A DNA stretch of 64,000 nucleotides from a virus (IMGVR_UViG_3300042988_000067:399-64398); one strand, 5' to 3'. Shown: positions 2,427-63,845, counted from the first letter of the stretch. Notes: generated by a model not told the origin, from the letters alone. Numbers and translations: made by a program.

Positions 2427-2803
2427 AGTGTGCCCGCCAAAGTAAACAGGTTGTCCAGATCGGTTTCGGTCAAGTTGAGTGCCGTTGCCATGTTGGTCAC
2501 CAGTGCATCATCCCGCTTCACTTCAGTGGCGTACTCCCATGTGATCTTGTCTGCTTCTGCGCCTGCGGCGATAGCGGCGTTGACCGTGGTGAGAAGTCCA
2601 CCTTGGTGTAGTGCCAGACGTGCTTGACGCATGGTTACTGTGGTGGGGATTGGTGCGGGTGGTTCGATGTATGGGTCAGGCGTGTTGCCTTCTGCAAGCC
2701 AGACCTTGTATTGCTCGTAGTCAGCGTTGCCGTCAGCGAAAGGGATTACAAGTCCGTCATCACGCTGAACGGAGTTGCCGAGGTGTGTCAGTGTGTATGC
2801 CAT
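2423..2803 (-). CDS. Tail fibre assembly/chaperone-like protein (copy A, ends ...LAGTL)
   Basis: Likely start MAYTLTHL at 2803; IPFADGNADYEQYKVWLAEGNTP and VTMRQARLAL...WEYA...LDNLF motifs typical of fibre-adjacent accessory proteins. Confidence 0.55.
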   Translation of the reverse strand: MAYTLTHLGNSVQRDDGLVIPFADGNADYEQYKVWLAEGNTPDPYIEPPAPIPTTVTMRQARLALHQGGLLTTVNAAIAAGAEADKITWEYATEVKRDDALVTNMATALNLTETDLDNLFTLAGTL

Positions 2804-3982
2804 GCTATAACTCCGCAGAGAACGTAAATGGAGAACCACCAGAACAGTAGGTTTGGTATTGACCTGCGGCAGTTACTTGAAGCGTCATATCGCACGAATC
2901 TGCCGATCTGGTATTCAACGATTCAGTTGCCGCCGTTACGTTTGATCTCGTCCATGTAACTCCCGCCAAAGACATACTAGGAGCAATCCGCATGGTTACT
3001 GGGAACTTGATTTGTCCGTAATATACAGCCCCTGCCGCTACCCTGTACCCATAGGCATTTATTGCTGTGGTTGTCGGGTCAATCTGCCAGTAGTACCTCT
3101 GACACAGCGCCAGTTCAGTTCCATACGGACGCTGTTCAAACTCGGTTGCGGTGGAGCCGATTTCTAGTTGGAACTCGCTAACCAGATACGATTTTGATGC
3201 TACCGAGTTTGCTGTATCGTCATAGATTGTAACGGCTAGTCCGAGAGATGCTTCAGCCGCGCCAAGTGTGTATGTTGTGGAAATAGTTGTGCAAGTGTTG
3301 TTGGCGACAGGAAGCGCACTTGACGTGTGGATAGATGTTGTTGCCGTGAACGTGTCAATCGTAGACGTTGGCTTGAGCAACTGTATTTTGAAGTTACGGG
3401 AACCTCCCGTGTTCTGGTACACCTTGCAACTAACCGTTATTGTTTTGCCATTCAGGTCGATTACGTTTGCTGACTCGAGCCTTGTTTGCGCGAGGAACTG
3501 CCCAGTTGTCCAAGTACCGTCTGGTGTTCCTATCGCCGTGTTACTCGTAAATCCGATGGCTTGCGCTGTAGTCGTGCCGTTGAGCGTTCCAGATACCGTA
3601 GTGCCGCCAGAAATGTATACGATCCACCTATCAGCAGAACCGTAAATATTATTGGTTGCGGTCAGGGCGACACCAGTTCCGCGCTGTCTTACAATCCCAG
3701 AACCATTGATAATCCGATTCCTAAACCCCGCGAGTTGACCGCCATTCAGGCTGGAAGCCGTATACGCATTCGCCGTGGTAAACACATCATCGGCCAACAT
3801 TGCATTTTGAATTTTAGTGGTCATACATTAGACCTCGTACTGGAAGTTGAAGTAGATATACTTGTTTGTCCCAGTTGGGCAGTTTGCTGTGGTGATCTGT
3901 GTACGCTGGCCGTTGGTTGCGTTGTTGTGCTCTATAAACAGTGTATTAGATGAAGCTTGCACAGACGCATAGAATGGGCCGA
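2445..3982. repeat. Direct repeat copy 1 (~1.54 kb), near-identical to 62463..64000
   Basis: Identical 339-aa translation in both copies; offset 60,018 bp; mismatches seen at 2498, 2504 and 2525. Confidence 0.95.
2805..3824 (-). CDS. Tail fibre/receptor-binding-like protein (copy A)
   Basis: 339 aa; FRNRIING...DRW...QLEIGSTATEFEQRPYGTELALCQRYY...FPVTMR motifs of carbohydrate-binding-type phage fibre modules. Confidence 0.7.
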   Translation of the reverse strand: MTTKIQNAMLADDVFTTANAYTASSLNGGQLAGFRNRIINGSGIVRQRGTGVALTATNNIYGSADRWIVYISGGTTVSGTLNGTTTAQAIGFTSNTAIGTPDGTWTTGQFLAQTRLESANVIDLNGKTITVSCKVYQNTGGSRNFKIQLLKPTSTIDTFTATTSIHTSSALPVANNTCTTISTTYTLGAAEASLGLAVTIYDDTANSVASKSYLVSEFQLEIGSTATEFEQRPYGTELALCQRYYWQIDPTTTAINAYGYRVAAGAVYYGQIKFPVTMRIAPSMSLAGVTWTRSNVTAATESLNTRSADSCDMTLQVTAAGQYQTYCSGGSPFTFSAEL

Positions 3983-6354: not shown

Positions 6355-6986
6355 CGGACCACTGAACTCCTATCGAGGTTGCGCCTGTTCTCTTCTGAAG
6401 TAAGGCTCTGGGCGGCACGGTCATAGATTGCCTGCCACTGTTGCACCATCTCCAAGTTCTTCAGGAACGGTTGCGCTTCAAGCATGCAGGCTGACAAAAT
6501 CAGTTGCGGACAGTATTCGGTTGTCCAGTTGGTTTGATTCTCTGACGAGAGAGGCTCTGGGCGCTCTCTGTAGACCAATTCAAACGGGTATGCATAGTCT
6601 GGGGTGCCTACCACCAAGAAATGGTCTTGGTCGTAGTTTGCGTAGTATCTGGGGGCACCTTGGACAGTAGGATCAGGCCAATAATTACGGCACCACTCAT
6701 AAGTGCGCTCAAAAAGATTGGTGCGAGATAGATTGCCAGTGCCAGTGCCATAGTTGAAGCTGATTGTTTCGCGCCATCTGGCGGGCTTCTCGATGACCGG
6801 CTGACCGACCGTCATGGTGTTGGTCACGATGCGCTGCATGCCAAGGTTCTGGACCTCAGCGGCGATGCGGTTCTCGGCCATCATCACAAAACGGGGAAGT
6901 TGCGTAATGAACGGGTTGTCTTGACGGTCAACATACACAGTGATGTCGTTTATCAAGCTGTCATATGTCATTGCCGCAGCAGTCAT
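6351..6986 (-). CDS. Head-tail adaptor-like protein
   Basis: 211 aa; MTYDSL..DI...F..MAENRI and NWTTEYCPQLILSACMLEA pattern of podovirus adaptor proteins. Confidence 0.6.
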   Translation of the reverse strand: MTAAAMTYDSLINDITVYVDRQDNPFITQLPRFVMMAENRIAAEVQNLGMQRIVTNTMTVGQPVIEKPARWRETISFNYGTGTGNLSRTNLFERTYEWCRNYWPDPTVQGAPRYYANYDQDHFLVVGTPDYAYPFELVYRERPEPLSSENQTNWTTEYCPQLILSACMLEAQPFLKNLEMVQQWQAIYDRAAQSLTSEENRRNLDRSSVVR

Positions 6987-24151: not shown

Positions 24152-25726
24152 CTAGATCGCATACGGGTTAACGAACTCGGCGCGCGTGTCGTCCTCCTCG
24201 TACTCGTCGTCCTTGGCGTAGTCCATGTCGAACAGTCCACGGTCGCGGATCATGATCATGGCCTGCGTGAAGGTGTCCACCATGTCGTCATGGTCGCCGC
24301 TGGGGAAGCGCTCCATCTGATCGATGAGCGGGCGCGCCCACGACATGAACTTTCCCTTGTTGGCCTTGGACTGCGGGATGTAGATGATGTCCATCTCAAG
24401 GATGGGCGAGACCTGATGCGCGCGGCTGATCTTGTCAGCCTTGCCGGGGTTGTAGCTGATGGTCGGGACGTTGGCCGCCCTGAGATCCTGAAGCAGGGAC
24501 TGGCCGGATCCCTTGGCCTCGACCAGCACCACGTCGGCCTTCCGGCCCTGCCGCATGTCGTCGGCCCCGTAGGTCGAGTGCCAGTCATCGATCACGCGCT
24601 TGCGCAGCTGCGGGTAGCCCATGTGCTCGGCCCAGCAGTCGATCAGCAGCACGGCCTTCTCGCCCTTCTCGGTCGTGAAGACGCCCCAGACCGAGCACGC
24701 CGTCGGGTCGCCCGTGGTCTTCTCGGTGAATGCTGTATCGTATGACTGTACGACGAAGTCGAAGGCTGGGAACTCCTCCGGCGTCCAGAGTTGCAGGTGA
24801 TCGACCTTGAAGATACCGCCGCCCGATGGTGACGGGATCTGCTGGAGCTGGCCGGCTGCGCCATAGTCGCCCAGTTTGGTCTTCAGATCCTCCAGCTCCT
24901 TCTTGCCGAACTGCTCAGGCCACAGCAGATCGCCATCACGCAGGCGCGGGTCCGACCACCCGATGCTGGTGGTCTTGGCGCGCGCATGCTGGTACTCGGC
25001 AGGCAGCAGCAGGTGATCCCAGCCGGCCTGAGCAAGAACGTGGCCGGACAGATCCTTCTCGTGCAGGCGCTGCATGATAATCACGCGTGAGCCGGTCTTC
25101 GGGTTGTTGAGACGGGTAGACATGGCCTGATCCCACCACTCCAGTGTGGACTCTCGGATCAGGTCAGACTGCGCCTCAAGCGCATTGTGCGGGTCATCGA
25201 CCACGACCGAGTCGCCACCGTGACCGGTAGTCGATGCGCCAACAGAGGTAGCGAACCGGTAGCCCGCTAGGTTGTTCTCAAAGAATGTCTTGGCGTTCTG
25301 GTCGCCCGTGAGCTTGAACATGGATCCCCAGCGCCGCTTGAACCACGGTGACTCGATCAGGCGCCGGCACTTGATGGAGTCGCGCACGCTGAGTGATCCG
25401 GCATAGGATGCGAAGAGCCATCGGTGTGATGGTCTCACCAGCCAGACCCACACCGGCCACATGACCGCAGCGATGATGGACTTCATGTGGCGAGGCGGCA
25501 TGTTGATCACCAGCTGGCGGATCTCGCCATTGGTCACGGCCTCAAGGTGATCGCAGATGGCCTCGATATGCCAGCCCTCTACGAATGGAGTCCCCGGCTC
25601 GATTACATGCCACGCCTGCTTGGTGAACTCATAGAGCGAGGTCTCGGCCAGCTCCTTCTGGTCGTTGTAGTACCACCACTGGAGCGCCACCTGATCATTG
25701 TGATCAAGCGTGATCTCGTCGATCAT
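24152..25726 (-). CDS. terL: Terminase large subunit
   Basis: INMPPRHMKS (Walker A), VVDDPH (Walker B), IIMQRLH, QSYDTA and HDDMVD nuclease motifs. Confidence 0.95.
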   Translation of the reverse strand: MIDEITLDHNDQVALQWWYYNDQKELAETSLYEFTKQAWHVIEPGTPFVEGWHIEAICDHLEAVTNGEIRQLVINMPPRHMKSIIAAVMWPVWVWLVRPSHRWLFASYAGSLSVRDSIKCRRLIESPWFKRRWGSMFKLTGDQNAKTFFENNLAGYRFATSVGASTTGHGGDSVVVDDPHNALEAQSDLIRESTLEWWDQAMSTRLNNPKTGSRVIIMQRLHEKDLSGHVLAQAGWDHLLLPAEYQHARAKTTSIGWSDPRLRDGDLLWPEQFGKKELEDLKTKLGDYGAAGQLQQIPSPSGGGIFKVDHLQLWTPEEFPAFDFVVQSYDTAFTEKTTGDPTACSVWGVFTTEKGEKAVLLIDCWAEHMGYPQLRKRVIDDWHSTYGADDMRQGRKADVVLVEAKGSGQSLLQDLRAANVPTISYNPGKADKISRAHQVSPILEMDIIYIPQSKANKGKFMSWARPLIDQMERFPSGDHDDMVDTFTQAMIMIRDRGLFDMDYAKDDEYEEDDTRAEFVNPYAI

Positions 25727-29668: not shown

Positions 29669-29905
29669 CTATTCTACTCCATCCATCCCGTAGATGTTGA
29701 ACATGGCGTTCATTTCATCGGTCGTGATGGCGGCGACATACGTGGAGTCATCCCCATGTATCCTGATCGTTGCGTGGAACACACCACCCTCAGCGACAAA
29801 GGCGCCTTCGCTCTCCTGAAACGAGATACTCCGGATGCTGTCCACCGAGATCAGCGTGTCATCAACGTTCTCGTCGCTCACCAGCAACATGTCCTTCTTA
29901 CTCAT
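29669..29905 (-). CDS. Hypothetical protein
   Basis: Likely start MSKKDM at 29905. Confidence 0.45.
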   Translation of the reverse strand: MSKKDMLLVSDENVDDTLISVDSIRSISFQESEGAFVAEGGVFHATIRIHGDDSTYVAAITTDEMNAMFNIYGMDGVE

Positions 29906-30164
29906 AAAAGTCCTCTCCCTTGAATCCAAAAATAAGGTCACCATAGGTAATGGTGATACCCAGTCCATTTGCTACATTAATGATGCGGTCCCACCACCGT
30001 CGAGGGATCTGCCCAGCCGTACCGTCACCCATGTCACGGTGCACCCAACACCAGATGGTGGTGTGGTGACACCCTAACAATTTGGCGAGGTCGCGGTAGG
30101 ACATCCCGAACTTTCCGATGATGGAGCACGCCGGCTCGATCCCACTCGTCTTGTCGTCAGTCAT
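29898..30164 (-). CDS. Cro-like HTH regulator
   Basis: Start MTDDK after GGAGG; IIGKFG..YRDLAKLLGCHHTTIWCW...GQIP; first gene of the leftward operon. Confidence 0.65.
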   Translation of the reverse strand: MTDDKTSGIEPACSIIGKFGMSYRDLAKLLGCHHTTIWCWVHRDMGDGTAGQIPRRWWDRIINVANGLGITITYGDLIFGFKGEDFYE

Positions 30165-30226
30165 AAAATTACCTCCAGACCAGACTCTAGCACAGGTGTA
30201 TGCATGACGCAAACGCGCTGGTGACC

Positions 30227-30482
30227 TGCCTATTTTTTAAGCAAACCCTAGTTGCCTATTTTTTGAGCAGTGATTTTAGAGTGTTGAATACCCGCATACA
30301 AAAGTCAGGTATTGCTCGTAAGTGATTGATTTTAATTCCAGAAAAACGTCGATTATTTTTGACCACCCTATACGGTAGCATCAGAAAACATTTAAATCGA
30401 TCCTAGAGCGATTCTGAGGCTTTTAGAGGCATGATCAAAAAATAGGCAATTTCATGATGCCTGTGGATATCTCTGTGGATAA
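30227..30482. promoter_or_regulatory. Host-factor site cluster: Fis-like x3, IHF x1, DnaA boxes x2
   Basis: GCCTATTTTTTAAGC (30228), GCCTATTTTTTGAGC (30254) and GATCAAAAAATAGGC (30433) fit the Fis consensus GNNYANNNNNTRNNC; 30319-30331 fits IHF WATCAANNNNTTR on the minus strand; TGTGGATAA at 30474 is a perfect DnaA box and TGTGGATAT at 30462 has one mismatch. Confidence 0.6.
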
Positions 30483-30561
30483 CATTGGCGCGGGTTCAAA
30501 GTGTTGTCATGTAATGATCACCCTAATTACCACCCCAGTTTCACCCCTATTAAAATAGTTG

Positions 30562-30590
30562 TTGACACGATGCAAACGCATCTATACCAT
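30562..30590 (+). promoter_or_regulatory. Sigma70 early promoter P1
   Basis: TTGACA-17-TACCAT. Confidence 0.75.
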
Positions 30591-30638
30591 GAGCGAAGTT
30601 TCACAGCTAACTAACTAACTTACTAAAGGAGCACTGAC

Positions 30639-30980
30639 ATGGAAAACTTCAACGCAATCGTACTGCACGCAAAACTCTTCGGCCTGCATCAGACCGGCAG
30701 TCTTGTTTTTTCCGATGGCTATAACCACGTTGCAAATTTCTCTGGCGAGGCCAAAAGCGAGGAAGCATTCCTTGAGGACGTGTTCTATAACACCAACAGC
30801 ATCGATCACGGCTGGTGGGAAAACGAAGGTATCGAGCTGTGCGGTGAGGCCAAGGTTAATGGTGGCGCCCGCTCTACCAGCGTAGGCGATGTGGTCATCG
30901 TCTGCCAAGGCGAAAAGGAAACGGTCTACCGCTGCGGCATCATCGGCTGGGAGAAGATCATCCTCAAGCACACTCACTAA
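30639..30980 (+). CDS. Early protein with YodL-like motif
   Basis: RSTSVGDVV...YRC..IGW resembles the YodL-type RSLSVGDVV motif; strong RBS. Confidence 0.5.
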   Translation: MENFNAIVLHAKLFGLHQTGSLVFSDGYNHVANFSGEAKSEEAFLEDVFYNTNSIDHGWWENEGIELCGEAKVNGGARSTSVGDVVIVCQGEKETVYRCGIIGWEKIILKHTH

Positions 30981-30981
30981 T

Positions 30982-31041
30982 TCGATCTGACGAGGCTGGG
31001 TAGCCCCCAGCCGAAACGCTGCGAAGCGTAATCGATAGCTA
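30982..31041 (+). ncRNA. Hammerhead ribozyme, type I
   Basis: Stem I TCGAT/ATCGA; core CTGACGA; stem II GGCTGGG/CCCAGCC; GAAA; stem III CGCT-GCGA-AGCG; GTA cleavage triplet (cut after A31030); loop II TAGC can pair with GCTA at 31038-31041. Confidence 0.92.
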
Positions 31042-31066
31042 ACTAACTTACTGATTGGAGAACGAC

Positions 31067-31387
31067 ATGACATTGAAAGTGATTTTTGAATTTGAAGGCC
31101 AGCAGCGCAAGACTCTGACCGGCATCCTGAACCTGCTGGGCAAGTGCTTCGCCAATGCCGATGTGTTCCACATCCCGACGCACTTCGACGACAACGATTT
31201 CATTGAGGAGCACTTTATCCTGTCGCTGCGCCCGAACACACTTAGCCTGAACGATGGATCCGTTGGCCTGACCGTCACCGACACCATCCTGCTGGGCAAG
31301 GGCGTCCTGCTCAAGCGCATCAGCTCCAACTTCAGGCTGCCCGCTGAGTTCCGCAAACCGAGCCGTCTCAACCAAGGAGCCAACTAA
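31067..31387 (+). CDS. Early hypothetical protein
   Basis: GGAGAACGACATG start following the ribozyme. Confidence 0.6.
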   Translation: MTLKVIFEFEGQQRKTLTGILNLLGKCFANADVFHIPTHFDDNDFIEEHFILSLRPNTLSLNDGSVGLTVTDTILLGKGVLLKRISSNFRLPAEFRKPSRLNQGAN

Positions 31388-31388
31388 C

Positions 31389-31730
31389 ATGGGAATCTGC
31401 GTCTACAAGCTGACCGGTAAGGTCATCAATCTGGAGGGAGGCATCACGGCTCAGGTGGCCGTGTTTGCCTACAAGCCAACGTTCTGTGGCTTCGATGCCG
31501 AGAAATGGAACCGTGCAGCAGCGCGCGCCACCGGCTGCAACAGGCCGATCAAGGTGCGCTCGATCAACATCGCCATCGTGCATGACGACGAGTGCGAGGT
31601 GTTCCGCAACGAGGGCGGCCTGTCGGTGTTCTATGACGACCTGATCGGTCGCGCCGAGCACTTCCCCAAGGTTGGCGGGTTCATCAAGGACGGTAAGTTG
31701 TGGTATGGTCCGAAAGTGTTGACAATATAA
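31389..31730 (+). CDS. Early hypothetical protein
   Basis: 113 aa, AAGGAG RBS. Confidence 0.6.
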   Translation: MGICVYKLTGKVINLEGGITAQVAVFAYKPTFCGFDAEKWNRAAARATGCNRPIKVRSINIAIVHDDECEVFRNEGGLSVFYDDLIGRAEHFPKVGGFIKDGKLWYGPKVLTI

Positions 31731-31747
31731 ATTAGCTCCTGTACCAT
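31719..31747 (+). promoter_or_regulatory. Sigma70 early promoter P2
   Basis: AAAGTG-TTGACA-17-TACCAT. Confidence 0.75.
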
Positions 31748-31789
31748 CCGCCTTGTAGTACAGCTAACTAACTAACCAAGGAGAACGAC

Positions 31790-32029
31790 ATGACAACCGA
31801 TACCAAACAAACCGCTGACCAGCTGAACGCTGTGTTCGATGTCAACCGTGAGTGCTACAACCTCACCGAGGCATCCACCGGCAAGCTGATTGGTCGCTTC
31901 CGCCTGATCCGCGAGCTGATCGACATCCTGCAAGCCAAGGGCATCTACGGCAACCTGCAAGTGGTCGAAGGCAACGACGACAGCGTGATCACCATCACCC
32001 CGCGTGGTGGCCGCTACAACACCTACTAA
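31790..32029 (+). CDS. Early hypothetical protein
   Basis: 79 aa; CTAA leader plus AAGGAG. Confidence 0.6.
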   Translation: MTTDTKQTADQLNAVFDVNRECYNLTEASTGKLIGRFRLIRELIDILQAKGIYGNLQVVEGNDDSVITITPRGGRYNTY

Positions 32030-32045
32030 CCAAAGGAGGTACCCG

Positions 32046-32294
32046 ATGAACAAGCAGGAACTCTTCGACGGCCTGAGAACCGTAGCCAAGCTGGAGGCCG
32101 AGGCCGACCAGCGCGCCAAGGAGGTGGGCGTCTTCACCTCCAGCGAGCATCACCTCAAGGTGAAGTTCGACGTGGTGCTGCTGCCCTCCGGGGCGGCAGT
32201 GTGGCGCAACCTCAGCCTGAAGGAGGCCGAGCAGAAGCTGGAAGCTCTGGCCTGCTCTGGGCTGGAGGGCTACGCTGAGCCGGTGTTTATCTAG
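32046..32294 (+). CDS. Early hypothetical protein
   Basis: Start MNKQELF after AAGGAGG. Confidence 0.55.
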   Translation: MNKQELFDGLRTVAKLEAEADQRAKEVGVFTSSEHHLKVKFDVVLLPSGAAVWRNLSLKEAEQKLEALACSGLEGYAEPVFI

Positions 32295-32308
32295 CTGGCT
32301 TAAAAGTG

Positions 32309-32337
32309 TTGACAAGGCGGGTCTGCATCTGTAAGAT
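32309..32337 (+). promoter_or_regulatory. Sigma70 early promoter P3
   Basis: AAAAGTG-TTGACA-17-TAAGAT-CCGTCTTGT. Confidence 0.8.
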
Positions 32338-32381
32338 CCGTCTTGTACCACTTAACTAACTAGCTAACAGGAGTAAACGAC

Positions 32382-33035
32382 ATGGAAAACAACATTCAAC
32401 TTCGAGGTCGCTGCCAGTGCTGCGGCAACCTGCAAGCCGTCGTGAACGGTCGCTCCAGCAAGCATGGCTACACTGTTGACCATGGCTGGTTCAATGGCGT
32501 GTGCAGCGGCCAGCACCACGCTCCAATCGAGCAAGACCGCAAGGTCGCTGATGACATCGTCGAGACCGTTCTGGCTGACGTGAAGGTCATCCGCGAAAAG
32601 GCTTACGCTCTCCGCATCGGCAAAATTGATCCTGTCTGGACCAAGTGGGTCTGGGTCGAAGGCAAGAACCACAAGCAGCAACAGGCTGTTGAGTGCAAGG
32701 CCGATGAGCTGTCCGAGTATGAGCGTGCTGGCCAGCGCAAGAACGCAATCTACCGCCACGAGCAGCGTGCAAGGGACGGCGAAGACTTTGCCAAGTACCT
32801 GCGCGACGTGGCCGACAAGTACCACGGCAAGGATCTGGTCAAGGTCGAGAAGAAGGCTCCGGCCAAGTGGATCGAGGCTGGCGAGAAGAAGCTGAGCGAA
32901 GGCGGCCACACGCTGATCGCCAGATACCAAGACGGCGCCCGCGTGTACTACAAGTTCAGCCGCGCAGGCCAAGACAAGGTCTACACCGGCTGGATAGGTA
33001 CCCAAGCATGGAGGAAGCTGCCGGACGTTGAGTAA
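32382..33035 (+). CDS. Early protein with Zn-binding-like N-terminus
   Basis: 217 aa; GRCQCCG...SKHGY...GWFNGVCSG. Confidence 0.55.
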   Translation: MENNIQLRGRCQCCGNLQAVVNGRSSKHGYTVDHGWFNGVCSGQHHAPIEQDRKVADDIVETVLADVKVIREKAYALRIGKIDPVWTKWVWVEGKNHKQQQAVECKADELSEYERAGQRKNAIYRHEQRARDGEDFAKYLRDVADKYHGKDLVKVEKKAPAKWIEAGEKKLSEGGHTLIARYQDGARVYYKFSRAGQDKVYTGWIGTQAWRKLPDVE

Positions 33036-33038
33036 CAG

Positions 33039-33145
33039 GGGTAGGCTGGGAAACCAGCCTGCATCTGAGAGTGGATGGGGTCAGTTGATGTCAGCTTCTG
33101 ACTCGTGTGCGTGACAGCACCCTGCGTCCATTCCCAGATGCACCC
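33039..33145 (+). ncRNA. Structured intergenic RNA (multi-branched), function unknown
   Basis: GGGT/ACCC closing a GAAA-capped 7-bp hairpin and a ~16-bp arm (33061-33077 / 33125-33141) that encloses two more hairpins. Confidence 0.55.
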
Positions 33146-33171
33146 AACTAACTAACTTACTGGAGAATGAC

Positions 33172-33495
33172 ATGACAACCGGACTGATTATTGACCTGCT
33201 TGAGGCAGAAGAACTTGTGAAGTACGGCAAGCCGCAGACAACGCTGGAGTACGCGCTGTTCGACAAGCTGAAGGAGCTGCTGGACTCCCGCAATGAATGG
33301 TACGAGGTTGCCGACAACTACAGCTGCTGCACACCGGAGGAGCTGACTTCCCTGATCGAAAGCAAGGACGGCGAGATCGAGGATCTGGAGGAAGAGAAAG
33401 GCAAGCTGGAGACAGAGCGCGATGAGTTGCTGCTTGAGGTCGAGCGCCTGACTGACCTCGTCAATGATCTTGAGGAGAGCGACGATGACAAGTGA
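33172..33495 (+). CDS. Acidic coiled-coil early protein
   Basis: 107 aa, very Asp/Glu-rich. Confidence 0.55.
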   Translation: MTTGLIIDLLEAEELVKYGKPQTTLEYALFDKLKELLDSRNEWYEVADNYSCCTPEELTSLIESKDGEIEDLEEEKGKLETERDELLLEVERLTDLVNDLEESDDDK

Positions 33496-33700
33496 TCAAC
33501 AAAAGAAGCTGGTCAGCGACCTGATTAACAGGGTGGCCAATGACATCATCGACCGCATTCATCTTGGCCGTATCCCAGAGAGCTGGGACGGCGCAGAGCT
33601 TCGGCAGTACGTGTCAGACCAGTTTCACGTGGAATGCTTTGGCCTCTCCGGCAAGCGCCGGAAAGAATACGACAACGACGTTATAGTGAACAACCTTTAG
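33485..33700 (+). CDS. Early hypothetical protein
   Basis: Start MTSDQQ; IPESWDGAELRQY. Confidence 0.55.
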   Translation: MTSDQQKKLVSDLINRVANDIIDRIHLGRIPESWDGAELRQYVSDQFHVECFGLSGKRRKEYDNDVIVNNL

Positions 33701-33710
33701 GGAGAACGAC

Positions 33711-34277
33711 ATGAACGACACCAAAAAAATTAAGACAGAGCTGGTCCTTCAATTCTGGCCGGACAACAGGTCATACAAGGAATACTGGTCCAACGATTGC
33801 AGCAACAGCACGCGCCTGCACTTCAGTCTGGTTGACGCAGGATCCGACCGCTACAGCGGGTTCGATGACGCTGACCAGACCGCACGCAACGTCGTGCTCA
33901 ACATCTGGCAGTGGCGCGACATTAAGCAGTTCAGCGTGAAGCCGGTTGCGCACGACGTGTACTCGGCAGACTTCAAGCAGCTGGAGCGCCTGACCAAGCT
34001 GGTGAAGGGTCTGGACTACCGCGTTGAGCGGGCGAGCGTGGTCAAGGACTATGAGACTCGCTCACCAAATGGTCCGGCAGGCTACAAGGACGTGCACGAG
34101 GCCGTTCTGGATGCCCTGAAGGCATGCAGCGTTAAGCGGGTGTTCTTGCGCCACAAGGGGTCGCTGGGAGAGCCTGAGATCGTCAGCGTGAAGGAGTTCT
34201 ATGACCTGTACCTGAAGAAGCTGCTGGATGAGCTTCAGGAGATCAGCGGAGTGCCAGAGGCGCAGGTAGTGGAATAA
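33711..34277 (+). CDS. Early hypothetical protein
   Basis: 188 aa; GGAGAACGACATG start. Confidence 0.6.
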   Translation: MNDTKKIKTELVLQFWPDNRSYKEYWSNDCSNSTRLHFSLVDAGSDRYSGFDDADQTARNVVLNIWQWRDIKQFSVKPVAHDVYSADFKQLERLTKLVKGLDYRVERASVVKDYETRSPNGPAGYKDVHEAVLDALKACSVKRVFLRHKGSLGEPEIVSVKEFYDLYLKKLLDELQEISGVPEAQVVE

Positions 34278-34282
34278 AAGTG

Positions 34283-34311
34283 TTGACAGGCGGATTTTGC
34301 TTCTGTAAGAT
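34283..34311 (+). promoter_or_regulatory. Sigma70 early promoter P4
   Basis: AAAAGTG-TTGACA-17-TAAGAT-CCGTCTTGT. Confidence 0.8.
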
Positions 34312-34353
34312 CCGTCTTGTTGTAACTAACTAGCTTACTTTTAAGGGGTGGAC

Positions 34354-34554
34354 ATGGAAAACATACTCATCAAGAGGTTCAGGGGCCAGTTCGGCACTTG
34401 GAGAGTTTATCAGGTTGAGCTTGGTTGCTTTTTTGTAACTGACCAGAACCTGAAAAATGCGCGTGGTGGTTTTGATTTTTCTTCCACCCAGAAAGAGCAG
34501 GCGATTGCGGCGGCAAAGAATGCCGCTGAAACAGGCGGTATCGGTAGTAACTAA
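34354..34554 (+). CDS. Early hypothetical protein
   Basis: Start MENIL after the CTAA leader. Confidence 0.5.
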   Translation: MENILIKRFRGQFGTWRVYQVELGCFFVTDQNLKNARGGFDFSSTQKEQAIAAAKNAAETGGIGSN

Positions 34555-34580
34555 CTAACTTACTTTTTAAGGAGATCGAC

Positions 34581-35432
34581 ATGAACTACATTTCTTATGG
34601 CCGCGCTGCAAACCAGACCGTGTTCCGCAGCAACACTCCACTCTCCAACGACCAGATCGCTCGCTACGCTCCTAGCGTGTTTGCGACCGAGGCTCACGAG
34701 TCCCGTGGCGAGCGCTACAGCTTCATCCCGACAATCGACGTTCTGCAAGGTCTGTCCAACGAGGGCTTCCTGCCCTACGAAGTGCGCCAGACTCGCGTCC
34801 GCGATCAGTCCAAGCGTGAGCACACCAAGCACCTGATCCGCCTGCGTCACGCCAATCACGGTACGCTGGTGGCCGGCTCCGAGATCCCTGAGATCTGCCT
34901 GATCAACTCCCACGACGGTACATCGTCCTACCAGCTGATCGGCGGCGTCTTCCGCGTGGTCTGCTCCAACGGTCTGATTGCCGGCAACATCGCTGACGAC
35001 ATCCGGATCCGCCACAGCGGCAACGTGGTCGGTGACGTGATCGAAGGCAGCTACCGCGTGCTGGATAACCTGAAGGAGATCGAGTCCCGCGTCGATACCT
35101 ACAAGGCTATCAACCTCGACGTGCGCGAGCAGCTTGCTCTGGCCAACGCAGCAATCGATCTGCGCTGGGATCGTGACGAGGTCAGCCAGAAGGCTCCGGT
35201 GCAGGCAGACTCACTGCTGGCAGTGCACCGCTGGGATGACCGCAAGGCAGACCTCTGGACCACCTTCAACGTGATCCAAGAGAACCTGATCAAGGGCGGC
35301 GTCCGCGCCCGCACCAGCACCGGCAAGCGCACCCACACCCGCGCTGTTGGTGGCGTCAACGAGAACGTGAAGCTGAACCGCGCTCTCTGGTCTCTGGCTG
35401 ATGCTCTTGCAGAGCACAAGCTGGCCGCTTAA
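34581..35432 (+). CDS. DUF932/DUF945-family protein
   Basis: APSVFA.EAHESR..RY.FIPT...TKHLIRLR...LINSHDGTSSYQL.GVFRVVCSNGL...DLWTTFNVIQEN. Confidence 0.85.
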   Translation: MNYISYGRAANQTVFRSNTPLSNDQIARYAPSVFATEAHESRGERYSFIPTIDVLQGLSNEGFLPYEVRQTRVRDQSKREHTKHLIRLRHANHGTLVAGSEIPEICLINSHDGTSSYQLIGGVFRVVCSNGLIAGNIADDIRIRHSGNVVGDVIEGSYRVLDNLKEIESRVDTYKAINLDVREQLALANAAIDLRWDRDEVSQKAPVQADSLLAVHRWDDRKADLWTTFNVIQENLIKGGVRARTSTGKRTHTRAVGGVNENVKLNRALWSLADALAEHKLAA

Positions 35433-35475
35433 ATACTTGTCCTAGCCGCTCAGGAGGCGGCTACAGCAAGCGTTT
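35431..35475 (+). other. Extended hairpin with internal loop (RNase III-site-like or terminator)
   Basis: AAATACTTG...TAGCCGC / GCGGCTA...CAAGCGTTT. Confidence 0.45.
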
Positions 35476-35484
35476 AAAAAGTGT

Positions 35485-35513
35485 TTGCACAATGCAAACG
35501 AAACCTGTAGAAT
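35485..35513 (+). promoter_or_regulatory. Sigma70 promoter P5
   Basis: AAAAAGTGT-TTGCAC-17-TAGAAT-CCGTTTTGT. Confidence 0.65.
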
Positions 35514-35553
35514 CCGTTTTGTAGTAACTAACCAACTAACCAAGGAGCACGAC

Positions 35554-35949
35554 ATGAACATCCAGTCTATCGAGTACACGCAAGAAACTTTGGCTCAGGC
35601 ATGGCTTGACGCAAAGGCACGCGAAGCAGAAGCAGCCCGCGAGCGCATTGAAATTGAAAAGCAGCTGATCGAGGTTCTCGGTGAGCGCGACGAGGGTTCC
35701 AAGACCCACACCCTTGAGAACGGTGCCAAGGTGACAATCACCTCCCGCCTGTCCTACAAGGTTCCTGATCTGGACGCACTGCTGGAGGTGGTCAAGAAGT
35801 TGCCCGCCAAGCTCCGCCCGATCAAGACGGTTCTGGACGAGACCGGAGTGAAGTACCTGCGCGATCAGGAGCCGGAGCTGTACGCAGTGGTGGCCACGGC
35901 CATCGAGGTATCCAAGGCCAAGACCGGAGTGACGGTCAAGGCGGTTTAA
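35554..35949 (+). CDS. Conserved recombination-module protein
   Basis: Start MNIQSIE; LAQAWLDAK.RE..A...RIEIE...EGSKT; precedes the Sak4/SSB genes. Confidence 0.55.
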   Translation: MNIQSIEYTQETLAQAWLDAKAREAEAARERIEIEKQLIEVLGERDEGSKTHTLENGAKVTITSRLSYKVPDLDALLEVVKKLPAKLRPIKTVLDETGVKYLRDQEPELYAVVATAIEVSKAKTGVTVKAV

Positions 35950-35954
35950 CGAAC

Positions 35955-36145
35955 TAGGGGAACAAACGGCAGCGCCTACTCGCCCGAATAGCTAGGGTCG
36001 AAGCTCGGTAGGAAGCGCACGGTGACCCCTAACCATGCGACTGCTGGTGCCCCGAAAGGAACGGGGATTTCCTCCCAGCGACATCCGTAGGCAGGCGAGA
36101 GAACCTACGGCGACAAGCAGAGCCTGACAGGCCGGAGAGACGGCC
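35955..36145 (+). ncRNA. Large structured intergenic RNA (three domains), function unknown
   Basis: TAGGGG/CCCCTA, GCGC/GCGC and CTAC/GTAG; CCCCG/CGGGG, CCGTAGG/CCTACGG and CTGCT/AGCAG; GGCCG-GAGAGA-CGGCC. Confidence 0.55.
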
Positions 36146-36172
36146 ACAATTCAACTAACGAAGGAGGTAATT

Positions 36173-36550
36173 GTGAGCGAGAACGAGTTGATTATGCTTG
36201 CGAAAAAACATGAGCAGGTTTTCCGGAAAGATTTTATCGGATGGCTTTATGAAAATGTTCACGTATTTAAAGTCTTTGAAAGTCTTGCTGAGGCTCTGGC
36301 GGCACGCGGAAGAACGTACTACTCGGCAAGAACCATCATCGAGAAAATGCGTTTTGATCATGACGTTTCCGAGGTTAACACGGCATTCAAGATCAGTAAC
36401 AACATGGCCCCAGACATTGTCCGTCTTTACGTTTTAACTAGGCCACGTCGCGTGAACATGTTTTCATACATGAAGACATCGAAACGAGAAGACTTTAAGC
36501 AATACATTGATGATTTATTAACTAACGAGGGATCTGGCGATGGCATTTAA
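36173..36550 (+). CDS. Hypothetical phage protein (YSARTIIE motif)
   Basis: GTG start after AAGGAGG; N.HVF..FE...YSARTIIEKMR...FKISNN; lower GC. Confidence 0.6.
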   Translation: MSENELIMLAKKHEQVFRKDFIGWLYENVHVFKVFESLAEALAARGRTYYSARTIIEKMRFDHDVSEVNTAFKISNNMAPDIVRLYVLTRPRRVNMFSYMKTSKREDFKQYIDDLLTNEGSGDGI

Positions 36551-41154: not shown

Positions 41155-41182
41155 TTGACACGGGTTTTTAAATATGGATAAT
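41155..41182 (+). promoter_or_regulatory. Sigma70 promoter P6
   Basis: AAAGTG-TTGACA-16-GATAAT. Confidence 0.65.
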
Positions 41183-41223: not shown

Positions 41224-41454
41224 ATGAACAACGACCGCCGCAAATTGATCACCGCCCTGCATGGTCAGCTTGATGACATCAAGGGCCAGATCGAGCAGCT
41301 CCGCGATGAGGAGCAAGATGCCTACGACAACCTGCCTGAATCCTTTCAGAACGGTGACAAGGGTCAGCTGGCTCAGGAAGCCATCGACAATCTTGAGAAC
41401 GCAGTTAACTCCTGCGATGAGGCATTGACCTACTTGGACGATGCCAGCGTTTAA
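41224..41454 (+). CDS. Small acidic helical phage protein
   Basis: MNNDRRK...DEEQDAYDNLPESFQ..DKG. Confidence 0.6.
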   Translation: MNNDRRKLITALHGQLDDIKGQIEQLRDEEQDAYDNLPESFQNGDKGQLAQEAIDNLENAVNSCDEALTYLDDASV

Positions 41455-41491
41455 CCAAAGCAGCAAACTAACTAACTAACTGGAGAACGAC

Positions 41492-46495: not shown

Positions 46496-46524
46496 TTGAC
46501 ATGATCGAAATTCATCTGTAAGAT
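46496..46524 (+). promoter_or_regulatory. Sigma70 promoter P7
   Basis: AAAAGTG-TTGACA-17-TAAGAT-CCGT. Confidence 0.8.
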
Positions 46525-46562
46525 CCGTTACATCAACTAACGAACTTACTAGGGAGCACGAC

Positions 46563-47402
46563 ATGGAAAACTTCTTCGACATCAATGACGACCTGAGCGG
46601 TTTTGACGAGTCCACTCTTGAGCAGGCTCTGGAAGGCCGTACTTACACCGAGATCTGCCAGAAGTGCCGTGGTCGTGGCACCTTCGTTTCTTACTCTGGC
46701 CGCACTGTCGGCACCTGCTACGCCTGCAAGGGCGCCGGCAAGTTTGAGCGCAAGACCTCCCCTGAAGCTCGCGCCAAGGCCAAGCAGTCCCGCGTTAACC
46801 GCGTGGAAGCCGAAAAGAAGAGCAACTGGGCATCGTTCGCTGAAGCCAACGTGGCCGAGGCAGCATGGATCGAAGCTAACGCTGAGTCCTTTGAGTTTGC
46901 CCGCAGCCTGTTCGTTTCTGTCGCCAAGTACGGTTCCCTGACCGATGGTCAGCGTGCCGCAGTCCAGCGCTGCATCGACAAGCAGGTAGCACGCGTTGCC
47001 GACCGCGTCCAGCGCGAAGCGTCTGCTGTTGTTGTGGACATCGCCCGCATCAACACCGCTCTGGAGTCCGCCAAGGCCAACCAGATCAACAACCCGAAGC
47101 TGCGCCTCGGTGACTTCACTTTCTCTCTGGCGAAGGTCACCAGCGTCAACGCAGGTGCCGTGTACGTCAAGGAAGGCGAGCTGTATCTGGGCAAGGTTGT
47201 CGCCGGCAAGTTCACACGTAGCCGTGACTGCTCCGCCGAGCAGGAAGCCGCAATCATCGCAGCATGTGCTGATCCAGAAGCAGCCGCAGTAGCCTACGGC
47301 AAGCGCACTGGTGTTTGCTCCTGCTGTGGCCGTCAACTCACCAACGGTGAGTCAATTGACCGTGGTATCGGTCCAATCTGTGCAACCAAGTTTGGTTGGT
47401 AA
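46563..47402 (+). CDS. DUF6011-like protein with N-terminal CxxCxGxG Zn finger
   Basis: CQKCRGRG...CYACKGAG; C-terminal CSCCGRQLT..ESIDRGIGPICA. Confidence 0.75.
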   Translation: MENFFDINDDLSGFDESTLEQALEGRTYTEICQKCRGRGTFVSYSGRTVGTCYACKGAGKFERKTSPEARAKAKQSRVNRVEAEKKSNWASFAEANVAEAAWIEANAESFEFARSLFVSVAKYGSLTDGQRAAVQRCIDKQVARVADRVQREASAVVVDIARINTALESAKANQINNPKLRLGDFTFSLAKVTSVNAGAVYVKEGELYLGKVVAGKFTRSRDCSAEQEAAIIAACADPEAAAVAYGKRTGVCSCCGRQLTNGESIDRGIGPICATKFGW

Positions 47403-62444: not shown

Positions 62445-62821
62445 AGACTTGCCGCCAGTGTGAACAGGTTGTCCAGATCGGTTTCGGTCAAGTTGAGTGC
62501 CGTTGCCATGTTGGTAACCAGAGCATCATCCCGCTTCACTTCGGTGGCGTACTCCCATGTGATCTTGTCTGCTTCTGCGCCTGCGGCGATAGCGGCGTTG
62601 ACCGTGGTGAGAAGTCCACCTTGGTGTAGTGCCAGACGTGCTTGACGCATGGTTACTGTGGTGGGGATTGGTGCGGGTGGTTCGATGTATGGGTCAGGCG
62701 TGTTGCCTTCTGCAAGCCAGACCTTGTATTGCTCGTAGTCAGCGTTGCCGTCAGCGAAAGGGATTACAAGTCCGTCATCACGCTGAACGGAGTTGCCGAG
62801 GTGTGTCAGTGTGTATGCCAT
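62441..62821 (-). CDS. Tail fibre assembly/chaperone-like protein (copy B, ends ...LAASL)
   Basis: Same protein as copy A except for the last residues. Confidence 0.55.
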   Translation of the reverse strand: MAYTLTHLGNSVQRDDGLVIPFADGNADYEQYKVWLAEGNTPDPYIEPPAPIPTTVTMRQARLALHQGGLLTTVNAAIAAGAEADKITWEYATEVKRDDALVTNMATALNLTETDLDNLFTLAASL

Positions 62822-62822
62822 G

Positions 62823-63842
62823 CTATAACTCCGCAGAGAACGTAAATGGAGAACCACCAGAACAGTAGGTTTGGTATTGACCTGCGGCAGTTACTTGAAG
62901 CGTCATATCGCACGAATCTGCCGATCTGGTATTCAACGATTCAGTTGCCGCCGTTACGTTTGATCTCGTCCATGTAACTCCCGCCAAAGACATACTAGGA
63001 GCAATCCGCATGGTTACTGGGAACTTGATTTGTCCGTAATATACAGCCCCTGCCGCTACCCTGTACCCATAGGCATTTATTGCTGTGGTTGTCGGGTCAA
63101 TCTGCCAGTAGTACCTCTGACACAGCGCCAGTTCAGTTCCATACGGACGCTGTTCAAACTCGGTTGCGGTGGAGCCGATTTCTAGTTGGAACTCGCTAAC
63201 CAGATACGATTTTGATGCTACCGAGTTTGCTGTATCGTCATAGATTGTAACGGCTAGTCCGAGAGATGCTTCAGCCGCGCCAAGTGTGTATGTTGTGGAA
63301 ATAGTTGTGCAAGTGTTGTTGGCGACAGGAAGCGCACTTGACGTGTGGATAGATGTTGTTGCCGTGAACGTGTCAATCGTAGACGTTGGCTTGAGCAACT
63401 GTATTTTGAAGTTACGGGAACCTCCCGTGTTCTGGTACACCTTGCAACTAACCGTTATTGTTTTGCCATTCAGGTCGATTACGTTTGCTGACTCGAGCCT
63501 TGTTTGCGCGAGGAACTGCCCAGTTGTCCAAGTACCGTCTGGTGTTCCTATCGCCGTGTTACTCGTAAATCCGATGGCTTGCGCTGTAGTCGTGCCGTTG
63601 AGCGTTCCAGATACCGTAGTGCCGCCAGAAATGTATACGATCCACCTATCAGCAGAACCGTAAATATTATTGGTTGCGGTCAGGGCGACACCAGTTCCGC
63701 GCTGTCTTACAATCCCAGAACCATTGATAATCCGATTCCTAAACCCCGCGAGTTGACCGCCATTCAGGCTGGAAGCCGTATACGCATTCGCCGTGGTAAA
63801 CACATCATCGGCCAACATTGCATTTTGAATTTTAGTGGTCAT
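62823..63842 (-). CDS. Tail fibre/receptor-binding-like protein (copy B)
   Basis: Translation identical to 2805..3824. Confidence 0.7.
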   Translation of the reverse strand: MTTKIQNAMLADDVFTTANAYTASSLNGGQLAGFRNRIINGSGIVRQRGTGVALTATNNIYGSADRWIVYISGGTTVSGTLNGTTTAQAIGFTSNTAIGTPDGTWTTGQFLAQTRLESANVIDLNGKTITVSCKVYQNTGGSRNFKIQLLKPTSTIDTFTATTSIHTSSALPVANNTCTTISTTYTLGAAEASLGLAVTIYDDTANSVASKSYLVSEFQLEIGSTATEFEQRPYGTELALCQRYYWQIDPTTTAINAYGYRVAAGAVYYGQIKFPVTMRIAPSMSLAGVTWTRSNVTAATESLNTRSADSCDMTLQVTAAGQYQTYCSGGSPFTFSAEL

Positions 63843-63845
63843 ACA

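Follow-up and report, generated by a model that had tools for sequence, protein, structure and literature searches.

What is the role of the folded RNA elements that separate the first genes of a phage early operon, and how do they relate to the leader that follows several of them? This question is raised by a 64,000-nt stretch of viral DNA (IMGVR_UViG_3300042988_000067:399-64398, hereafter the window), which represents nearly all of a single-contig virus record of 64,398 bp from a freshwater metagenome. A compact rightward early operon extends from 30.56 to ~47.5 kb, and the elements under study, a hammerhead ribozyme motif and three intergenic elements designated E2, E3 and E4, are located in its first 6 kb. 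A preliminary description of the window had proposed that promoters, self-cleaving RNAs and other structured RNAs are used interchangeably to create fresh 5' ends in front of a standard translation leader. Our analysis suggests a more restricted answer, namely that the hammerhead probably stands in for a promoter before the standard leader in a mosaic phage early operon built of small cassettes.

The hammerhead and the start region that follows it are located as follows.
30982-31035, plus strand: minimal type I hammerhead, which starts 1 nt past the stop of the gene at 30639-30980.
31037-31066, plus strand: standard start region with its leader, located behind the hammerhead, AGCTAACTAACTTACTGATTGGAGAACGAC, with the ATG at 31067.

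The hammerhead was found to be present exactly as first described. Stem I (30982-86/31031-35), stem II (30994-31000/31006-12) and stem III (31016-20/31025-29) comprise 5, 7 and 5 bp, respectively, and the core consists of CUGACGA at 30987-93, GAA at 31013-15, the A31016-U31029 pair and A31030 as H17, with a GCGA loop on stem III. The invariant type I core (C3 U4 G5 A6 N7 G8 A9, G12 A13 A14, A15.1-U16.1 and an H17 that is not G) is complete, with 11 of 11 invariant positions and 17 of 17 base pairs intact. Helix I is open, helices II and III are capped, and the minimum free energy (MFE) structure of 30978-31045 is the hammerhead fold. A descriptor scan of both strands yielded this single match in the window, while 100 dinucleotide shuffles yielded a mean of 0.01 matches when stems were relaxed and 0 when stems of at least 5/5/5 bp were required. 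The hammerhead is real as a motif, and cleavage is predicted between A31030 and A31031. The standard leader begins 6 nt past this site, and the predicted 5' untranslated region (UTR) after cleavage is 36 nt long up to the ATG at 31067. By comparison, seven promoters in the same operon have predicted 5' UTRs of 42, 36, 38, 36, 34, 35 and 32 nt, where the transcription start was predicted 7 nt downstream of the -10 hexamer.

These seven sigma-70-like promoter cassettes are all on the plus strand of the operon and are composed of AAAGTGTTGACA, a spacer of 16-18 nt and TAnnAT. Cassettes that match at least 10 of the 12 consensus positions number six, all of them intergenic and on the plus strand. 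The cassettes, together with two leaders of a different setting, are the following.
30562-30590, plus strand: promoter cassette 1, TTGACA-17-TACCAT, then leader 30605-30627.
31719-31747, plus strand: promoter cassette 2, then leader 31762-31780.
32309-32337, plus strand: promoter cassette 3, TTGACA-17-TAAGAT, spanned by an inverted repeat, then leader 32350-32368.
34283-34311, plus strand: promoter cassette 4, then leader 34324-34341.
35484-35513, plus strand: promoter cassette 5, TTTGCA-18-TAGAAT, then leader 35522-35544.
41155-41182, plus strand: promoter cassette 6, which is not followed by a CTAAC leader.
46496-46524, plus strand: promoter cassette 7, then partial leader 46535-46549.
34545-34580, plus strand: leader and start region directly after the open reading frame (ORF) at 34354-34554, whose stop is inside the leader; no promoter or structure upstream.
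41462-41491, plus strand: leader and start region directly after the ORF at 41224-41454; no promoter or structure upstream.

In the standard start region, a G-poor leader of (C)TAAC repeats precedes GGAG, ACGAC and the ATG. With up to 2 mismatches, AACTAACTAAC was matched 39 times compared to 7.5 +/- 2.6 expected matches, and TAACTAAC was found 15 times on the plus strand and not once on the minus strand. Nine full leaders precede the ATGs at 30639, 31067, 31790, 32382, 33172, 34354, 34581, 35554 and 41492, and two partial leaders precede the starts at 46563 and 36173. The G content of the leaders is 6-19%, compared to 29% region-wide, and 7 of the 9 full leaders have a stop codon in every frame as a result of their four-base period. 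Upstream of these 11 leaders are a promoter (six leaders), the hammerhead (one), E2 (one), E4 (one, with a degenerate leader copy) or the preceding ORF only (two). On the gene map, each plus strand early gap of at least 59 nt contains one of the seven promoter cassettes, the hammerhead, E2 or E4, which bears out the earlier observation that sizeable early gaps hold either a promoter or a folded element.

The cassettes at 32309-32345 and 34283-34320 also contain an inverted repeat that extends from the -35 region to about +1 (GGCGGGUCU...AGAUCCGUC), and a block in these cassettes, CTGTAAGATCCGTYTTGT, is conserved well past the -10 hexamer. The repeat may serve as an operator or may form a hairpin when the RNA is made by read-through; the fold of 32225-32345 has an energy of -52.3 kcal/mol on the plus strand versus -28.3 kcal/mol on the minus strand.

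In the arrangement that we propose, most gene cassettes would open with the standardised start region, in front of which there would be a host sigma-70-type promoter or, once, the hammerhead. The hammerhead would be transcribed within read-through mRNA from the promoter at 30562 and would cut itself after A31030. The upstream message would then end in two hairpins and a 2',3'-cyclic phosphate, and the downstream message would start with a 5'-OH and the 36-nt leader, similar in length to a leader born from a promoter. The ribozyme could hence provide the next cassette with a defined 5' end of its own without a transcription start of its own. Cleavage in vivo, the positions of the transcription starts and the functional equivalence of promoter and hammerhead are what we infer from this arrangement.

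Evidence that extends beyond the window comes from a comparison set of 220 loci (1.93 Mb), made possible by the DUF932 gene, the only early gene that is widely shared. Types I, II and III are all represented among the 15 distinct canonical hammerheads of these loci, and 15 of 15 share the strand of the anchor gene. On its 5' side, each either directly adjoins the upstream ORF or lies 0-3 nt past a stop codon; on its 3' side, 10-41 nt separate it from an ATG. Five shuffles of the whole set yielded 0, 0, 1, 1 and 0 matches. This strict strand and position bias argues for selection. A covariance model built from the window copy identified five more type I hammerheads, in L127 (two), L166, L019 and L125. 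Across the six type I sequences, the alignment of which was fitted to the model and thus favours the structure (MAFFT misaligned three of the type I hammerheads), standard pairs fill 87 of 87 pair cells, and both sides have changed in 9 of 17 pairs. Column shuffles never reached the pairing of the hammerhead (0/500), and when the partner was slid by one to three columns, pairing was 27-49%. The five relatives retain the hammerhead fold through compensatory changes.

The type of element found at one and the same position also varies. In the gap 3' of DUF932, the window carries E3 and a promoter; among 116 distinct relatives, five carry a hammerhead (L014, L123, L161, L047 and L062) and 12 a promoter-like site in this gap. 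The comparison of orthologous gaps for exchange between element types, which had been put forward as a check in the preliminary description, therefore does reveal such exchange. The L062 element (6844-6941, directly 3' of DUF932) is type II hammerhead-like, with the core CCGAUGA, in which U4 is replaced by C.

Two groups of relatives repeat the arrangement of the window with leaders of their own.
L127 3771-4470, L019 3367-5230 and L125 2300-2640: L127-type lineage.
L161 3421-5870, L047 2212-4478, L153, L165 and L168: L161-type lineage.

In the L127-type lineage, the leader AAACGCTTAA is found after a type I hammerhead or a promoter; the start region, AAACCCTYAAACGCTTAA plus GGAG, is preceded by a type I hammerhead or by a promoter of the TTGACA-N17-GATAAT type. 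Counts of promoters and hammerheads before the same leader are 1 and 2 in L127, 1 and 2 in L019, and 1 and 1 in L125, and the 5' UTRs in L127 are of similar length (~41 nt from the promoter versus 39 nt from the hammerhead). Several hammerheads of L127, L019 and L125 have an extra U between A9 and stem II. In the L161-type lineage, the leader CCCAGGAG, in a start region of the form gtCCCAGGAGgaca-ATG, has a type II or III hammerhead, a promoter or neither of them upstream, and the transcript from its promoter begins with a 5' hairpin. Among the seven leader copies of L161, four have a hammerhead upstream, one a promoter and two neither. Up to four hammerheads (types II and III) are found within 2.5 kb in this lineage, each ahead of gtCCCAGGAGgaca-ATG. 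At L161 4263, a type III hammerhead before the start region has been reduced to its 3' end, which looks like a recombination scar; such cassettes thus do break by recombination. The alternation of hammerhead and promoter before a standard leader is found in three unrelated phage lineages, the window included. The part of the original proposal that is supported is that promoter and hammerhead look interchangeable before one standard leader, on the basis of the predicted 5' UTR lengths in the window (36 nt versus 32-42 nt), the exchange in the DUF932 gap and these two further lineages; its extension to E2, E3 and E4 is not. In a broader survey of 503 distinct plus strand gaps from 176 loci, 43 gaps have a loose hammerhead core, 57 a promoter-like site, and many others are strongly folded. 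Gaps with neither hammerhead core nor promoter that are strongly folded include L060 1594-1833, L187 5820-6036 and L072 7600-7714, among others, with z-scores of -6.6 to -9.1 (15 mononucleotide shuffles each).

A number of points weigh against the hammerhead as a working substitute for a promoter. The transcription starts of the promoters with which it is compared are predictions. A search of the whole window against Rfam at the gathering score yielded 0 matches, and a lax search (E <=10) of 7 kb yielded chance-level matches only and no hammerhead. In a 111-nt search, RAGATH-1-hammerhead was the best family, at 12.3 bits versus a cut-off of 56.3 (E 8.3), in an alignment that places the core correctly. 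The Rfam thresholds recovered 0 of the 15 descriptor hammerheads in loci of 14 relatives, and caught only one other; since 15 of 15 canonical motifs in relatives are missed, the miss in the window counts for little. When 146 nt are folded together, a competing structure is more stable than the hammerhead fold by 5.8 kcal/mol, and the hammerhead helices have an equilibrium probability of ~0; in this competing fold, the 3' half of the ribozyme is paired with the final 50 nt of the upstream gene. Competition of equal strength was seen for 8.7% of 300 shuffled upstream sequences, so the competing fold is not clearly a designed switch. Co-transcriptional folding and ribosomes on the end of the upstream gene would be expected to favour the hammerhead fold. 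Contact between stem I and loop II is needed for fast hammerhead cleavage at physiological Mg2+; here, stem I is limited to 5 bp, and a clear tertiary contact between it and loop II was not seen. Loop II (UAGC) could, by reading only, pair with GCUA at 31038-41, and no equivalent was seen in five relatives. Finally, there is one hammerhead in the window and no cluster.

The role of the leader has to be considered in the same context. Two full leaders (34545 and 41462) trail ORFs with nothing else in front of them; as these leaders follow an ORF stop directly, a fresh 5' end is not a requirement for the leader. The leader is a translation module in its own right and not a strict partner of a 5'-end generator, and the tie between the two that had been assumed at first does not hold. 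The predicted accessibility of the start region is 0.53 for leader genes and 0.51 for non-leader genes (p 0.84), and is nearly equal for a fresh 5' end and for read-through RNA. No thermodynamic benefit of cutting is therefore visible, and accessibility of the start region as a reason for cutting was rejected. A scan of viral contigs with a 16-nt leader sequence found 31 single matches, mostly in AT-rich unrelated phages, and no relatives. One unrelated AT-rich viral contig (L081 9380-9470) carries a promoter and then TAACTAACTAACTTACTTTTAGGGGTGG, which is nearly identical to the leader at 34324-34353; this leader type is thus not confined to the phage studied here.

Whether the hammerhead is the only structured element with such a role depends on the remaining elements.
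33039-33145, plus strand: E2, an orphan structured element, with the leader 33142-33163 at its 3' end.
35430-35476, plus strand: E3, a post-stop hairpin of 18 bp (5+5+8) with 1x1 and 2x2 internal loops, followed by promoter cassette 5.
35950-36172, plus strand: E4, a 223-nt non-coding spacer with several hairpins, before the gene at 36173-36550 (GTG start, AAGGAGG).

The same leader had been reported a short distance after each element. This is the case for the hammerhead and for E2, which the leader follows directly; E3 is followed first by a promoter, and E4 includes just one TAAC unit, at 36153-36163.

The best surviving alternative, which is nonetheless unlikely, is that E2, and perhaps E3 and E4, are also processing elements, so that every non-promoter gap makes a fresh 5' end; E2 would then be a new self-cleaving ribozyme or an endonuclease signal, such as an RNase III site, in the slot of the hammerhead. 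E2 does occupy this slot, between a stop codon and a standard leader, and it is indeed a strongly folded, multi-branched RNA. It is composed of a 5' hairpin at 33043-33060 (AGGCUGG-GAAA-CCAGCCU, 7 bp with a GNRA cap, GAAA) and an irregular 81-nt arm at 33061-33141 with 7+9+7 bp, a bulge, a side hairpin and a three-way junction. Its MFE of -56.9 kcal/mol corresponds to a z-score of -4.77 (0/200 shuffles as good), compared to -47.5 kcal/mol and -3.19 for the minus strand; the advantage of 9.4 kcal/mol of the plus strand is due to three G-U pairs. The fold persists in longer context. Among 364 sliding windows between 28 and 48 kb (25 shuffles each), five reached z-scores of -4.25 or lower, and E2 is among the best without being unique. 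Two hairpin loops of E2 could form five Watson-Crick pairs with each other, as do 2% of shuffled loops. T7-type RNase III sites are irregular double-stranded stems of about two helical turns, and their size range accommodates stems of ~18-23 bp, which covers both the coaxial arm of E2 (~23 bp) and the 18-bp stem of E3 with its internal loops; both stems are irregular, and length alone is not diagnostic of RNase III sites. A review also states that it seems to matter little which ribozyme motif is present at such loci, and that further classes may be located there (PMC6765202).

Other results are not in line with this extension to E2, E3 and E4. A 151-nt search of E2 against Rfam (E <=10) yielded only chance-level microRNA and small RNA families, and neither E2 nor E4 matched the models of twister, twister-sister, pistol, hatchet, HDV-like, hairpin, VS, glmS or hovlinc ribozymes. 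A covariance model of E2 did not detect a credible homologue in 194 sources (1.8 Mb of related early regions), and blastn-short and tblastx searches with E2 and E4 against all loci and the phage's own genome found nothing. The earlier suggestion that E2 and E4 may be ribozymes is accordingly not supported by any family match or homologue. Matches of the E2 model in L024, L138 and L139 (E ~5, all >=4.7) were rejected, as they are inside coding sequence. An interpretation of E2 and E4 as hammerheads in a degenerate or permuted form was also rejected, by reading: G8 and A9 are disrupted in CUGAGAG and CUGACAG, and there is no rightly placed GAAA. The 5' hairpin of E2 is generic and is shared with 12 other viral contigs, where it mostly serves as a terminator or directly follows a stop; a link based on the GGCUGGG...CCAGCC that is common to E2 and stem II of the hammerhead was therefore dropped. 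In both replicate lineages, moreover, every structured slot element that is not a promoter is a hammerhead. For E2 by itself, any role in processing is possible but doubtful, and it would be surprising if its three-way-junction domain (33061-33141) turned out to be a self-cleaving ribozyme of a new class or a signal dedicated to processing. E2 remains an orphan structured spacer, and a candidate only. If such a role were true for E2, early operons would draw on an open set of interchangeable 5'-end devices that includes promoters, hammerheads and E2-type elements.

E3 had been described as an internal-loop hairpin, and this part of the description stands, with a z-score of -4.52 and 0/200 shuffles as good. 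As a special element it does not stand, as a G+C-rich hairpin is found after the DUF932 stop in nearly all of the 116 distinct relatives, with a T-rich tail in 37 of 116. E3 itself lacks the U-run of an intrinsic terminator, its tail being GUUUAAAAAG, and a terminator scan found no plus strand site at 35430-35480. E3 is the local form of an ordinary post-stop hairpin, and no special explanation is needed; it may end or protect the upstream message before promoter 5, and a role as an RNase III site is conceivable.

A second alternative, which has still less in its favour, is that E2 and E4 are cis-regulatory leaders and not processing sites. E2 would stabilise or insulate the upstream message at its 3' end, in keeping with the stable hairpins that usually follow a stop in relatives. 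For E4, the role would be that of an extended 5' UTR through which translation of the gene at 36173-36550 is controlled, for example by pairing of UUUCCUCC (36067-36075) with the Shine-Dalgarno sequence. The centroid fold of 35950-36175 does pair CCUCC with the GGAGG of the ribosome binding site, and the gene at 36173 has the strongest Shine-Dalgarno sequence, uses a GTG start and heads a recombination module (Sak4, SSB, HNH and Cas4-type exonuclease). However, CCUCC would be expected by chance in 220 nt in an estimated one of five cases, and the pairing is at chance level. The fold energy of E4 is at the level of shuffles, with z-scores of -0.08, -0.47 and -0.26 (84, 60 and 89 of 200 shuffles as good), as is that of its minus strand (+0.56), which does not bear out the initial account of a large structured RNA. 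A 241-nt search of E4 against Rfam (E <=10) yielded only chance-level matches, and no convincing ORF was found in it. Syntenic relatives with the DUF7173-gap-Sak4 arrangement (L205-L210, L212 and L213) have small ORFs or ~40 nt in this gap, and nothing that resembles E4. E4 is a spacer without demonstrable structure.

Least consistent with the data is the explanation that the hammerhead is an inactive relic and the structured gaps are recombination scars between cassettes without an RNA-level role, which is improbable because, even though the early region is extremely mosaic, the L161 4263 remnant exists and the competing fold disfavours the hammerhead at equilibrium, the ribozyme has all 11 invariant core positions and 17 base pairs intact, compensatory changes occur in five relatives, and strand and position are strictly biased in 15 of 15 hammerheads.

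The use of a hammerhead in place of a promoter can be compared with several known systems. In T7, the early mRNA is processed by RNase III at irregular hairpins between early genes, and a 3' hairpin is left on the upstream message. The window is similar in having irregular hairpins between the early genes of a phage operon. It differs from T7 in that E3 has its own promoter after it, so that no cut is needed for the 5' end of the next gene, and in that E3-like hairpins are near universal after DUF932 in relatives. RiboJ is an engineered hammerhead insulator with a trailing hairpin that is placed between promoter and ribosome binding site and results in a fixed 5' UTR. As in RiboJ, the hammerhead in the window would fix the 5' UTR whatever lies upstream; unlike RiboJ, it occurs naturally and is followed by an unstructured leader. 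The role hypothesised here for phage hammerheads would thus be a natural counterpart of synthetic ribozyme insulators.

Clustered hammerheads that flank genes in prophages have been shown to cleave in vitro and in E. coli, and were proposed to process long transcripts into single-gene mRNAs (Perreault 2011, PMC3088659). The window shares with these prophages canonical hammerheads in intergenic positions on the coding strand of phage polycistronic transcripts, beside varied small genes. It is different in that it has a single hammerhead, one leader that is common to the hammerhead and the promoter cassettes, and matching predicted 5' UTRs. Hammerheads that flank phage genes have therefore been published since 2011, and the equivalence with promoters before one standard leader is the addition made here; this equivalence was not found in full-text searches of open-licence papers or in the available sections of PMC3088659. 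In a 2019 review, the role of hammerheads in bacteria and phages was described as largely unknown and elusive (PMC6765202). According to the same review, twister-sister, pistol and hatchet were found through gene contexts associated with ribozymes. The logic is similar here, as unrelated self-cleaving motifs occupy the same genomic slots and an unassigned structure in such a slot is thus a candidate ribozyme. In contrast to twister-sister, pistol and hatchet, which have many covarying homologues, E2 and E4 are single sequences that match none of those models. In T4-type phages, PeSL cassettes consist of an early promoter and a stem-loop, are located at the borders of small, variable early genes and have been proposed to promote the shuffling of modules (PMC2839356, PMC4122927). 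The unit that is repeated in the window differs in being a promoter or ribozyme plus a translation leader, and a ribozyme module is absent from the available description of PeSL cassettes.

The alternation of promoter and hammerhead before one leader in three lineages, with matching predicted 5' UTR lengths, turns a vague idea of processing into a testable hypothesis, in which a ribozyme gives a promoter-less cassette a defined 5' end like that of a promoter. It also suggests a rule for finding ribozymes, which is to gather, for each phage, all copies of the standard start region and to inspect what stands upstream of them. E2 is the one element of this sample that fits the slot yet matches no known class.

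The cassettes belong to a phage with no close relative in the collections searched and with an extremely mosaic early region. Leftward genes, including one for a 704-aa primase-helicase, extend up to 29.4 kb, and the proteins encoded in the first 6 kb of the operon are mostly orphans, with Sak4, SSB, HNH and Cas4-type exonuclease just downstream. The genes named in the vicinity of the elements are as follows.
29898-30212, minus strand: 104-aa helix-turn-helix (HTH) protein.
32382-33035, plus strand: PHROG-17208 protein, 217 aa.
34581-35432, plus strand: DUF932 protein.
35554-35949, plus strand: DUF7173 protein.

No close relative of the 217-aa gene was found in viral or genome contig collections, the best relative of the primase has only 44% identity, and matches among INPHARED phages were limited to 130 nt of the 217-aa gene. 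DUF932 relatives reach at most 70% identity and, save for two remote copies of the 217-aa gene, have no other early gene in common with the phage: when 15 early proteins were compared with 191 loci, DUF932 was common to 160, the 217-aa gene to two and the other 13 to none. The same phage was found in three DNA sequencing runs, with zero variants within the elements, and no RNA sequencing run that contains it was found.

Between the HTH gene and the first early promoter, 30213-30560 forms a divergent control region, in which three copies of TGCCTATTTTTT / AAAAAATAGGCA were seen by reading; these are likely operators. Outside the operon, a direct repeat of 1,549 bp (2434-3982 and 62452-64000, 99.6% identity) runs to the end of the contig, and the first 142 nt of the contig reappear within both copies at 97%, which suggests either an assembly wrap-around of a ~60.0-kb unit or a duplicated gene. 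A tRNA-Leu (CAA) was predicted by ARAGORN at 24360-24448 on the plus strand, where long ORFs are found on the minus strand.

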